Positions 2,310-23,860 of a stretch of 64,000 bases of DNA are shown here, piece by piece. Origin of the DNA: Eledone cirrhosa (Eukaryota). A program made the translations under genes and the position numbers. The stretch spans positions 75,888,001 through 75,952,000 of the forward strand of contig OZ024747.1 in assembly GCA_964016885.1 (NCBI GenBank), in the 5' to 3' direction. The notes below the pieces were generated by a model. It made no database searches. It had not been told where the DNA came from and saw nothing but the letters and a program-made list of their open reading frames with translations. The stretch's first letter is position 1. Each line of letters begins with the position of its first letter.

Positions 2310-3060
2310 GTAAGTATGTATTACCGGTTTGTTTTGTGAAGGTACGTATACCTTCTCGTACGTATATTTGATTGTTTTGGCGTATAATTTTTATATATTC
2401 TGGTACATAGGGTTTGGCTATGTGTATACGGGAGTTTTGCGTCTGTGTGAGTATGCGGGTTCGTACGTATGGTGGCTGTGTGTATATGTGTACTTCTTGT
2501 TTTAGTTGACTTACGTCTCCGAACATTCGTGTATTTATATGTGGGTATGTGTGTGCGCTTGTTATATACGTATTTATTTATTTATATACGTTTATATAAT
2601 TATTTATTTATTTGTATACACGCATACACACACACACATATTTATATGTGCGTGGTTTTGTATACCTATGGTAAGGTTTTCCATATGCTTGTGTATGTAC
2701 GTATTTGTTTGCGTGTATGTATTTATTTATTTCTATTACTTCTGTATTGTATTTATTTACTTGTTCTTAACTCTGTAGCGGAGATTCATTTGGTCTCCTA
2801 GTTAGAATTTTAGTCTACGACTTCTGTTATACCGTTTACGTGGTTTTGTCTTTGCGTGCTATTGTTCTCCACGATCCACATATGACGTATTATCTTCGTT
2901 TTTTCGTTCATTGCCATAGAACGTCTCTATGCACCACCTAAGTGAACATTAGTCTACGACCTCTTTTATACCATAAACGTGGTTCTGTCTTTGCGCGTAA
3001 TTGTTTTTCACCGCTCCTATTAATGACGTATTATATTCGTTTTTTCCCGTTCTTTGCCAG
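2310..3060 (+). other. Spliceosomal intron (751 nt) retained in the PLE pLTR
   Basis: Donor catag|GTAAGT at 2310 and acceptor tttttcccgttctttgccAG| at 3060. The sister copy at 23689/23690 reads catag|cgaac, the exact spliced junction. Confidence 0.9.
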
Positions 3061-3141
3061 CGAACACTTCCACGAACCAAAGTATCGTCTTCCTGTCTTC
3101 CTCCGGTTGCAACGTTTTTTTAAATATCCAGTTCTGCGTTT

Positions 3142-3217
3142 ACAGATTGACTTTGTTAGTTTCAGAAGATCCCGTTAAGGGTGAAAGCAGCGATTCTTTG
3201 CTTAAACTTTAATCTGT
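3142..3217 (+). ncRNA. Type I hammerhead ribozyme motif, variant core CAGAAGA
   Basis: Stem I ACAGATTGA..AGTTT / AAACT.TTAATCTGT; core CAGAAGA (3163-3169); stem II CCC-gttaa-GGG; GAAA (3183-3186); stem III GCAG/TTGC; triplet CTT. Folded by eye. Confidence 0.78.
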
Positions 3218-4609
3218 TATTTTAATAAATATTTGCTCTACGGTTCTTATATATTTGATATATATTTATCCTTATCGAGCCCTCTTTGAATTTTAGTCTT
3301 CAAATTTACTATTATTACTCTCTCTCTCTCTCTCTCTCTCTCTCTCTCTCTCTCTATATATATATATATATATATATATATATATATATATATATATATA
3401 TATATATATATATATATATATATATATATACTGTATATATATACGTATATATATATATATATAATTCTTGATCCCAGTTAAGTTGTGTTGGTTTCTGAAA
3501 CTGGAAGTAGAGGATCATTCATCGAAGTCTTTCTCTCCAGGACATCGAAGATATCCAAGGGTGGAAGCATATTATCATTACTGACATCACAGATCAATTC
3601 AGAAGGCAGTGGGCTGTAATATATATCACAAACCACCAGACCCAACATTCTAACAATTCCGTTAATCTACTACGCTATATTGGATTTTTGTTAATTTTTG
3701 GTAATTTCAAAATATGAAAGGCAAAGCTCAACTTCCATGGGACTTTAAATCAGAAATCAGAGTCAAAACACTTAATCCACCACAGAGAGCGACGATGCAC
3801 TAAATCCAATGCTTTCTGTCCTTCCATTCTATCACTCCCCTAACACATGTTTACACGTATTCTTACAGGCAGAGAATTGTTTTATTTTAAATATGAGTCT
3901 GTGTTTACGTGTGTTAGAATCTGATCTTGATTGTGTGTGTTTTTATTCCTGCACACACACAAATACACACATGCACATGTACATATATTCTCTCCCTTTC
4001 TTCCCCTCACACATCCTCCCACACACAAACACTCACACATGCACAGACGGCCACACACGTAGAACAATGCACACTTCAAGATTGACACACATACATAAAT
4101 ATACACACACACACACACACACACACACACACACACACACACACGTATATATATATATATATATATATATATATATATATATATATATATATATATATAT
4201 ATATATATATACATATATATACATATATATATACATATATATATATACATATATATATATATGTATATATATACATATATATATGAATATATATATATAT
4301 ATGTATAATATATAGGTGTTTGAGTGTGTGAACCGGTATCTGCGTGTGAGTGTATGTTCAGATGTGTGTGTGGATACTAGTGTGTATATGTGTGTGCAGG
4401 TGCGTGTATATCAGTGCTATACACTTGAGATATTGTGATATTGATAGGCAGTGACAGGTGAAGCGATTGTGGAGAGAGAACAAGATAAGAAGTTGAGGAG
4501 TCAAAGGAATGGATAAAAGATGGAGGATGTGTGACAAATATCAATGAATAGAAAACAGCAAGCTAGTATATATATATATATATATATATATATATATATA
4601 TATATATAT

Positions 4610-4823
4610 ATGGACCATAACGCACCAGGATACTCGATACTTTTGGTAGTAGAGTAGGTAATAAGAAAATGTCCAATATATATATATATGATAATGCCGC
4701 CGAAACGGCTTGAGCTCTGCAGTCGGGGCCTTGGACACTTTACTATTACCCACTCTGTTACCAAAGTATCGAGTACTCTGGTGCGTTATGGTCCACCTGG
4801 TTCCTTACCGCACTTCCTTCGTT
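4610..4823 (+). mobile_element. Short PLE pLTR remnant, family B, with an inverted 5' arm, inserted in (TA)n
   Basis: About 4610-4672 is the inverse of about 4744-4795. The sequence is shared with 30762, 31663-31852 and 44680-44873 and carries the 3' half of a hammerhead (GAAACGGC...GTC). Confidence 0.7.
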
Positions 4824-4918
4824 ATATATATATATATATATATATATATATATATATATATATATATAAAGAATGAATAATAACAGGTAGACATCATAAA
4901 AAGGTAATTTATTCCGTG

Positions 4919-20453: not shown

Positions 20454-21262
20454 AGAAAAAGGGATGAAATCGAAAATGCAACTGAAGTCTTATTTTTTTA
20501 AAAATATATATATTTATTTGGTTCCTTTACCGGTTTCGCAGTTCTTCTGCTTTTCAAAAGGTGAGTTGAGATGGAGGGTCTGTGGTTTTTCTCACATCTG
20601 GTTGGTCTCTAAATGTTACTTGTTTTATATGGAAAAACTGGCTCGGAAACCAGGTGTTTCGAGAAGTAATTTGATTGGTTTGTCAATAATTATAATAAAT
20701 TTCGCGCCAGTTCGCGTTACAATAGTTCTTCAAATAAGAGAGGGGGGGGGGGGGTTGTCACAGGTTGTTTTTTCATATATGAGTGTTTGAATTTCTTTTT
20801 ACTTGAAAAAAAAAGCCTTCGTGAGCCCCTTTTTTCAAGTAAAAAGAAATTCAAACACTCATATATGAAAAAACAACCTGTGACAACCCCCCCCCCCTCT
20901 CTTATTTGAAGAACTATTGTAACGCGAACTGGCGCGAAATTTATTATAATTATTGACAAACCAATCAAATTACTTCTCGAAAAACCTGGTTTTCGAGCCA
21001 GTTTTTCCATATAAAACAAGTAACATTTAGAGACCAACCAGATGTGAGAAAAACCACAGACCCTCCATCTCAACTCACCTTTTAAAAAGCAGAAGAACTG
21101 CGAAACCGGTAAAGGAACCAAATAAATATATATATTTAAAAAAAAATAAGACTTCAGTTGCATTTTCGATTTCATCCCTTTTTCTTTATACTTCCACTCG
21201 TGTAGGACACCTCGGTTATTTTTCATTTTGTAAAAAAAAACAAAAAAAACCTCACTTTCTAA
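20454..21262 (+). mobile_element. ~810-bp fold-back pLTR element, family D; hammerheads 20524-20561 (-) and 21078-21115 (+)
   Basis: Arms 20454-20812 and 20830-21190 are near-perfect inverses, with a 3' extension to 21262. Left-arm motif CCTT TTGAAAA GCAG..CTGC GAAA CCGG TA AAGG. (TA)n on both sides. Confidence 0.88.
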
Positions 21263-21899
21263 TATATATATATATATATATATATATATATATATATATT
21301 TATTTATATATATATATATATATATATATATATATATATATATATATATATATATATATATACATGTGTGTGCCTCTGTGTGTCTACGAGAGTATATATG
21401 TGTGTGTTATGATATGCAGACAAAGATGCGGAAGATATGATCAAGGGGATAAGGTGTGTATATATATTCATTTGTTTATTCCCAGGTAATATTTGTTGTC
21501 TTTGATGTGGGGCATTTGATAGCGGACGGAAAAATGGGATTCAACAGCTAATGTATTCAAATCTACATAAAATATCGCACGTTCCCACTTTGCAATAGCT
21601 ATTTCATAACCATTCTCTTTCATTTCGAAATTTCTATCAGAATTGATATTAAGATAAATCAGAATACAAACGCCATATATATATATATACATATATATAT
21701 ATATAATATATATATATATATATATATATATTATATATACATTAATATATATATATATATATATATATATTATATAAACATTAATATACATATATATATA
21801 TATATATATTATATATACATTAGAAGGAACGATCGACTTTTTTGTCAAATCGGACCGAGGGAACAATGTTTCCGTTGGTCTTTCCAATTGCTAATACTA

Positions 21900-22045
21900 T
21901 CTATTGGTCGCAACTCCAGGTAGAAGGAGCAACGTGAAATAAAGTGTCTTGCTCAAGGACATAACGCATCGCCTGGTCCAGGAATCGAACTCACAACCTT
22001 ACGATTGCGAATACAATTCTCTAACCACTCAGCCATACGCCTTCA
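21900..22045 (-). mobile_element. tRNA-derived SINE of a second family (also 33795-34075 minus)
   Basis: Minus strand ggcgtatggctgagtggttag (A box), gagttcgattcc (B box), then tccttgagcaagacactttatttcacgttgctcc. Confidence 0.8.
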
Positions 22046-22642
22046 TTAATATACACATATATATATATATATATATATATACACACATAATGCATAGATA
22101 TATATATACATAGATATATATAAGTATGTATATATATATATATATATATATATATATATATATATATATATAAGTATGTATATATATATATATATATATA
22201 TATATATATATATATAAGTATGTATATATATATATATATATATATATATATATATATATATATAAGTATGTATATATATATATATATATATATATATATA
22301 TATATATATATATCTATATATCTATATATATATCTATGTATATATATATATATATATCTATGTATATATATATATATATACATACTTATATATATCTATA
22401 TATATATATATATATATATATATATATATATATATATATATATATATATATATATATACATATATATATATACATATATATATATATATATATATATATA
22501 CATATATATATATATATATATATATAATATATATATATATATATATATATATATAAGTATGTATATATATGTATATATATATATACACGTATATAAGTAT
22601 GTATATATATATATGGCGTTTGTATTCGGATTTATCTTAATA

Positions 22643-23860
22643 TCGTTAATTACCTCGACGTTACCCTCAATTTATTGAATGGGTTGTATTACCCGTATAG
22701 AAAGCCGTATGATACGCTTAATTACATAAGTAAGCATTCCAACCATCCTGCCAGCATAACCAAGAACCTGGTAAGAAACGTTTCGTTGAGGCTTTCCCGT
22801 CTTTCCACCAACGAGCGTATTTTCAACGACCATTCCACTTATTACAATGAAGCTCTTGCTCGAAGCGGATTTGTCGATAAGGTAGCATATACTGAGTACG
22901 AAAATAGACCTAGAAGTAATAGTTCCCGTCGCATTTGTTGGTATAACCCACCATATAATATGGAGGTGGCCACACCATTAGCTAAGATCATTCTTTCCCT
23001 TATTACGAAGCATTTTCCCCTACACATAAATATAGTAAAACTTTTAATAGAAATACTATTAAAATTTCTTACTCTACGACTCCTAACCTTGCACATAACA
23101 TCACAGCTTCTAATGTAGCTAAACTACCATGCCGTAGGAACACGTGCAACCCTGTAGTTAGTACTAACTGTAATTGTAGGAATCGGGTTGATTGCCCCCT
23201 ATCCGGGAAATGCCTCTCTAGTAACATTGTCTACAAATGTAAGGTTGTAACACCCACGTCCCGTAGAGCCTACATAGGGTTAACCGCCAATAGATTCAAG
23301 CAGCGTCTTTACATGCATACCCATTCTTTTCGTTACCCTCTAAGAAGGAATATGACGTCACTTTCAGCTTATATCTGGAGTCTAAAAGACAACCACACCC
23401 AATATGAGTTACACTGGGAGATGCTAGCTAGGACTAGATCGTATAACGGAAATAAAAGACCATGTGACCTCTGCGCCGCTGAGGCCCTGGAAATACGCTA
23501 TGCCACAGACCACATCTTAAACAAAAAATCTGAGGCAATTTCGGCTTGTAAACATAAATTGCACAAAACTTTCCTGTATTACAGCCCCACGTTATACCCT
23601 AACGGATAGTACGATTTATACGTGGATATTTACGTCTTGATGTGGGAGCTAAGTATATGTTTTGTTTATACCAATACTTATTTGCATAGCGAACGTTTCC
23701 ACGAACCAAAGTATCTTCTTCCTGTCTTCCTCCGGTTGAACGTTTTTTGAAAGATCCTCTTCTGCGTTTACAGATTGGCTTTGTTAGTTTCAGAAGATCC
23801 CGTTAAGGGTGAAAGCAGCGATTCTTTGCTTAAACTTTAATCTGTTATTTTAATAAATAT
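22643..23860 (+). mobile_element. Second family A PLE copy, 5'-truncated, intron spliced out; hammerhead 23770-23845
   Basis: Highly similar to 1262-2309 joined directly to 3061-3230. It has a frameshift near 23018 and encodes the thumb, Cys linker and GIY-YIG domains. Confidence 0.95.

Follow-up and report, generated by a model that had tools for sequence, protein, structure and literature searches.

Why Penelope-like elements (PLEs) keep introns is described as unknown in the available part of Craig et al. 2021 (PMC8557442), and a locus in the genome of Eledone cirrhosa raises the related question of whether such an element can also be copied from RNA that has lost its intron. The window (the whole stretch of 64,000 nucleotides analysed here, G000:C7:75888001-75952000 in a 3.0-Gb genome) carries an intron-bearing copy (copy 1) and an exactly intronless copy (copy 2) of one family with the motifs of the Hydra clade of PLEs. 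The reading favoured here, to which a probability of roughly 0.8 is given on sequence evidence, is that the element's own reverse transcriptase (RT) has repeatedly copied sense RNA processed by the spliceosome, beside the usual unspliced RNA. It is preferred because the join is exact and occurs on five haplotypes, because spliced and unspliced insertions are alike in 3' ends, (TA)n flanks and frequency of inverted arms, and because the arms of one insertion agree in splice state. The features concerned are as follows, in window coordinates.

2310..3060, plus strand: 751-nt GT-AG intron in the pseudo-long terminal repeat (pseudo-LTR), with GTAAGT donor, branch-like TAATGAC (3021-3027), pyrimidine tract and CAG acceptor
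2810..2922, plus strand: upstream duplicate of the acceptor region, diverged (80%)
22643..23860, plus strand: copy 2, 5'-truncated and intronless, with the join between 23689 and 23690, terminating in TA-rich DNA at the first common 3' end
22615..22644, plus strand: host flank 21645-21674 (30 nt) repeated in inverted orientation at the 5' terminus of copy 2
6910..7987, no strand assigned: palindromic insertion of this family, arranged head to head, with intron sequence in each arm

The intron follows the U2-type consensus (AG/GTAAGT, TAATGAC, ttcgttttttcccgttcttt and CAG; slashes mark boundaries and joins). In copy 1 the donor follows position 2309 (tttgcatag/GTAAGT) and the acceptor ends at 3060 (ctttgccAG/cgaac). 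The intron is placed in the pseudo-LTR, 81 nt past the stop codon of one unit and in the 5' untranslated region (UTR) of the next, because the natural tandem copy L309 shows the unit. In copy 2, positions 22643-23689 correspond to 1261-2309 at 95.7% identity and pass straight into a match to 3061-3232, with the join, TTTGCATAG/CGAAC, starting at 23681. The initial annotation had described this pair, one copy with the intron and one exactly spliced, and the donor, acceptor and join are confirmed. It was also correct that the palindrome keeps intron sequence, which is present in both arms (6910-7445, minus strand, equivalent to 2698-3232; 7443-7987, plus strand, equivalent to 2775-3319), and that an inverted arm derived from the element is absent from copy 2. 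At its 5' end this copy carries the inverted host flank instead, as if the complementary DNA (cDNA) had switched onto the target flank.

What was first seen as a single spliced and unspliced pair is in fact part of a set of hundreds of junctions on several subfamilies. The 14-nt join TTTGCATAG/CGAAC has 219 exact genomic matches, against one for a reversed control, and the window join is therefore not due to chance. The variant TATTTGCATAG/DGAAC (D = A, G or T) has up to 108 exact matches, mostly GGAAC (control 2), and the intact donor has 3124 (control 13). Chance joins outside the element accounted for one of 30 loci in one sample and three of 30 in another. Counted at equal stringency, eight spliced junctions were present among the listed 100 of 2765, and the intronless share is approximately 9% of element junctions genome-wide; both arms of one insertion are counted separately in these figures, i.e. 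twice. Use of the duplicate acceptor near 2922 was considered and rejected: five AGAAC matches were found among the listed 100 of 108, of which three are point mutants of the normal join and two are not the element.

Heterogeneous deletion endpoints in other copies had been named in the initial annotation as a sign of DNA deletion. Among the listed 100 of 353 donors with a continuation other than GT, 82 show the canonical join or its point variants, seven a join that keeps four more bases (TAG/CCAG, the +4 join), 11 a mutated donor and none any other endpoint; the survey was made from the donor side and would overlook any deletion that extends into the exon before the donor. In 377 copies the intron ends in a variant form, which has an extra AG, four bases upstream. 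One +4 insertion carries the +4 join in both arms, and the extra AG occurs in 3/3 sampled introns of its class.

The anatomy of the insertions was compared in 60 spliced and 37 unspliced loci, taken in list order. The two common 3' ends were used by 45 and 48 of 95 spliced ends and by 30 and 27 of 57 unspliced ends, and TA-repeat flanks were present at 83/95 and 49/57 ends, respectively, so that 132 of 152 outer ends show the (TA)n insertion typical of the Hydra clade. Inverted head-to-head arms occur at 38/60 spliced and 22/37 unspliced loci (Fisher p=0.83). The suggestion in the initial annotation that the spliced form goes with a missing inverted arm is thus not borne out, although the accompanying proposal, that both spliced and unspliced RNAs are reverse-transcribed, appears to be the best reading. 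Processed copies made by the machinery of long interspersed elements (LINEs) also lose introns precisely, via an RNA step. In contrast to these, none of the 95 spliced-copy ends was classed as poly(A), unspliced copies likewise end without poly(A), and the spliced copies have the ends, targets and inverted arms of the PLE.

Where both arms of an insertion reach the intron, they agree in splice state, with 18/18 spliced pairs, 16/16 unspliced pairs and no mixed pair. The 18 comprise 17 spliced/spliced pairs and one with a further short deletion, and 16 extra spliced loci that had been chosen as pairs are left out of this count. With independent draws at 30%, the chance of 18/18 agreement would be 4e-10. 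Rare alleles are common to both arms in 18-25% of cases, compared with 1% for cross pairs, in a comparison that also took in loci selected as pairs and three loci wrongly grouped as spliced although they are unspliced. Two candidate mixed insertions were rejected: in L229 the intron-bearing piece of the supposed inverted pair belongs to another copy, older and 950 nt distant, and in L243 a second insertion lies behind a TA run. Direct tandems with a 5' part reaching the intron are unspliced in both parts in L279, L280, L282, L305, L308 and L309. Both parts are spliced in L318 (G000:C4:291783834-291789270), a large head-to-head insertion that holds two full-length units and lacks the intron at each of its three junctions.

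An enriched sample of 275 junctions (145 spliced, 130 unspliced) bears on whether the intronless form had one origin or many. Five main haplotypes, defined at positions -20, -17, +1, +9 and +71, each occur with both forms:

AAGTC: 35 spliced, 34 unspliced
AACTC: 61 spliced, 11 unspliced
ATCTG: 6 spliced, 4 unspliced
TTCTG: 10 spliced, 21 unspliced
TTCAG: 6 spliced, 16 unspliced

Crossover cannot move the +1 marker onto an existing join. With the +4 joins included, there are at least eight haplotype-by-junction classes. Among 56 alleles present at 5% or more in 235 rows, 54 are found in both forms and two in unspliced rows only, and net divergence between spliced and unspliced rows within a class ranges from -0.0001 to 0.0017. 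A single intron-loss clade was rejected by the approximately unbiased (AU) test (p-AU 6e-6) on a tree of 38 of the 77 long rows (up to five per class and form), and both the haplotypes and the shared alleles also speak against it. In the same tree the splice label clusters no more than shuffled labels. Within-class divergence drops from about 0.05 to 0.02 along the haplotype series; intronless copies arose in every period and never displaced the intron-bearing line.

Several observations weigh against repeated copying of spliced RNA. Splicing is read here from DNA alone, and a slip at the AG (AGG) microhomology shared by the intron boundaries would yield identical letters. Net divergence is slightly above zero in two classes (p 0.027 and 0.006). 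In an unbalanced tree of 100 rows the splice label is clustered (19 changes, against 32.6 for shuffled labels), partly through sampling, and trees are weaker here than flanking markers because the copies are mosaic. By rough estimates, the spliced share is also unequal: about 9% for the oldest class, 33% for the one that follows it and 3% for younger classes. The unequal shares and the clustering in the larger tree therefore suggest amplification from intronless sources, which the 33% share may reflect. Four of six +4 insertions lie on the oldest class, in which 27/27 sampled introns are without the upstream AG and which accounts for only one of the listed 100 extra-AG copies; one further +4 insertion lies on an intermediate class in which 9/9 sampled introns are without it. 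The +4 join is thus only partly explained, and on the oldest class it is either unexplained or derived from one rare source. Later arm-to-arm conversion could have given the arms their common rare alleles. Lastly, L264 (G000:C1:373555765-373561353), the only mixed insertion seen, is a full-length tandem whose 5' pseudo-LTR is spliced and whose 3' pseudo-LTR is not.

Some of these points bear on a quite possible, if somewhat doubtful, alternative in which splicing followed by reverse transcription happened only a few times (at least the eight haplotype-by-junction classes), and most intronless copies descend from intronless sources that transpose themselves; agreement between arms would then be trivial. 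The estimate that about a third of one class is spliced, the fully intronless full-length tandem L318, the four +4 joins on a class without the required AG, and allele 1037T, found in 7/30 spliced and 0/47 unspliced rows, are all in line with it. Nevertheless, none of the 56 common alleles is diagnostic for spliced copies, and in the two largest classes rare alleles in common are no more frequent between two spliced copies than between a spliced and an unspliced one (0.18 against 0.28 and 0.11 against 0.14 per kb). Moreover, copying of spliced sense RNA would still be required repeatedly, so that this alternative limits the rate and not the mechanism: spliced sense RNA is needed wherever the exact intronless form originates, although an intronless source could later be copied from either strand.

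Splicing could instead have been mimicked, which is unlikely, by the RT slipping on unspliced RNA, in a template jump between the intron-terminal AG and the AG that precedes the donor. Both boundaries carry AG (AGG in the older class), with TTTGC a few bases upstream of each; these elements often jump templates, as in their arms and internal inversions, and arm agreement would follow if the second arm were copied from the first cDNA. However, the adjacent 5-nt microhomology TTTGC should then be preferred, yet it is joined in one copy genome-wide compared with approximately 320 at the splice boundaries. The ends of the missing interval are also those of an intron, with consensus donor, branch-like motif, pyrimidine tract and CAG, and the endpoints are without scatter among the listed 100 of 353. 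The same uniformity and the near absence of joins at the longer microhomology (the one copy) count against a loss of DNA through microhomology repair once the copy was in place, or the conversion of existing copies by spliced cDNA, which we regard as very improbable. Microhomology deletions of Penelope copies have been reported in rotifers (PMC3846280, available part), and L264, the mixed tandem, might be an example, but the constant agreement between arms is not expected from independent later events.

If spliced RNA is repeatedly copied, as favoured here, insertion would begin with the endonuclease nicking (TA)n DNA, where priming would occur. Reverse transcription would start at an AT-rich internal site inside the sense RNA, 3232 or about 3325, and run back through the 3' pseudo-LTR on an RNA that is usually intron-bearing and sometimes spliced. 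The two arms of a head-to-head insertion would go back to a single RNA molecule or to RNAs transcribed from a single source copy, alternatives that the data do not separate. Intronless copies may leave some offspring but would be poor founders, since every subfamily is mostly intron-bearing and the youngest is the least spliced. The intron may persist because expression from the 5' pseudo-LTR depends on it. Another possible reason lies in nonsense-mediated decay and its 50-55 nt rule, as a junction 81 nt after the stop codon could mark 3'-spliced RNA for decay. Taken further, the intron would serve as a natural tag of the template: retention would be leaky and not mechanistic, the template sense, most spliced insertions fresh captures of spliced RNA, the arms products of one RNA, and intronless founders failures. 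This fuller account is put forward tentatively, at a little short of even odds.

The element class, the pseudo-LTR intron and spliced transcripts are already known; the papers cited for comparison were available in part. In Penelope of Drosophila virilis (Schostak et al. 2008, PMC2377424) an intron likewise lies in the pseudo-LTR upstream of the next open reading frame (ORF), spliced and unspliced RNAs both occur, and intronless elements have been proposed to be disadvantaged. Intron persistence in the present family fits such selection. The Penelope intron is 75 nt long, compared with 751 nt here, and the part of that paper available describes only an engineered intronless copy. Chlamys-3_cRei (PMC8557442) also has a 5'-UTR intron at the pseudo-LTR boundary, but its endonuclease is N-terminal and spliced insertions are not described in the available text. 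Poseidon PAc of Anolis (Frangieh et al. 2024, PMC11167929) likewise has two internal start sites, defining an optional tail, and AT-rich targets; both strands are cut and extended, the RNA template spans the pLTR-ORF junction, and ribozyme cleavage is dispensable. Unlike that of Poseidon PAc, the tail of the present element is approximately 90 nt long and ends before the ATG. The available text on Poseidon PAc does not deal with splicing. To account for intron retention, an antisense template has been put forward in preference to an unspliced sense one, and the available part of the source (PMC3846280) gives no test. Hundreds of precise intronless insertions with normal PLE anatomy, on one subfamily after another, do not sit easily with a template that is antisense only, and the reading of the intron as a natural tag, if true, would settle against that model. 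The literature consulted holds no report of recurrent, precisely spliced genomic PLE copies or of splice-state agreement between arms, and an earlier mention is possible. Arm agreement constrains how inverted arms form, for which the natural-tag reading, if true, would be the first genomic handle, and the family offers a large natural data set together with a simple reporter design.

The remaining features of copy 1 are:

1..306, minus strand: inverted 5' arm, intron-bearing (the whole arm corresponds to 2535-3232 and starts about 390 nt before the window)
299..2228, plus strand: ORF for RT and C-terminal GIY-YIG-type endonuclease, 5'-truncated and frameshifted, with DKT at 463, YRDD at 1134, CxCx5C at 1788, YIG at 1890, CxxC at 2082 and CxH at 2166
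2229..2309, plus strand: 81-nt spacer from stop codon to donor
3061..3232, plus strand: exon 3' of the intron, reaching to 3232, where the first of the two common 3' ends of insertions lies
3233..3330, plus strand: optional tail (about 90 nt) that extends to the other common 3' end
3158..3208, plus strand: hammerhead-like motif in the Hydra layout, read by eye against File S2 of PMC8557442 (available part)

The unit of the element, shown by L309 and about 3.25 kb long with the intron, comes to 2.5 kb without it. YRDD, GASDS and YIG lie in one reading direction, as in a single-ORF, endonuclease-bearing (EN+) PLE; in tandem copies the ATG of the ORF lies some 45 nt beyond the tail, and one tandem copy has the ATG and continuous coding sequence, though with frameshifts. 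Partial tandems forming pseudo-LTRs, inverted 5' arms and an optional tail, all typical of EN+ PLEs, are present. Pfam and PDB searches gave no match to the element, so that RT and endonuclease are named from motifs; the clade call is based on motifs, (TA)n targets and hammerhead layout. By these the element appears to belong with the Hydra clade (PMC8557442), which likewise has a C-terminal endonuclease, DKT, a CxCx5C linker, CxxC and CxH around the conserved E/N, (TA)n targets and the hammerhead layout, and which includes a mollusc family, Hydra-1_Obim. The listed hammerhead sequences differ, and the present element is therefore a family other than Hydra-1_oBim. No intron is noted for Hydra families in the metadata sheet of that paper, whereas the present element bears one; it also has RWR (RLRWRVF in L309) where the clade has RWK at the N-terminus, and A at hammerhead core position 4. 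The core (3163-3169) reads CAGAAGA, not CTGAAGA, and the ribozyme may thus be inactive or unusual. CAGAAGA is found in the two window copies compared and also in L264 and L309, and published Hydra motifs carry CTGA. An Rfam search of the element returned no hammerhead match, and the hammerhead-like fold is not the lowest-energy one (z 0.55). Templates ending at the predicted ribozyme cut were rejected, as 5' remnants stop at scattered sites (unit 3102-3214).

Elsewhere in the window, a second Hydra-like PLE family, with a protein 34% identical, lies at 25300-28951 (minus strand). It is very young, with 40/40 scored matches at about 100%, and has a hammerhead-like CCGAAGA...GAAA near 25380-25420, with about 1.4 kb between stop codon and motif. 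Short palindromes of other families in TA runs (4600-4830 and 5064-5390) are probably 3'-end-only PLE insertions. Fragments at 18121-19356 (plus strand) and 37995-38950 (minus strand) are taken by us to be CR1-like LINE reverse transcriptase. Long tandem arrays at 15660-17030 and 51000-62300 (21-nt unit; Thr-rich low-complexity open frames of up to 1809 aa) are probably minisatellites.

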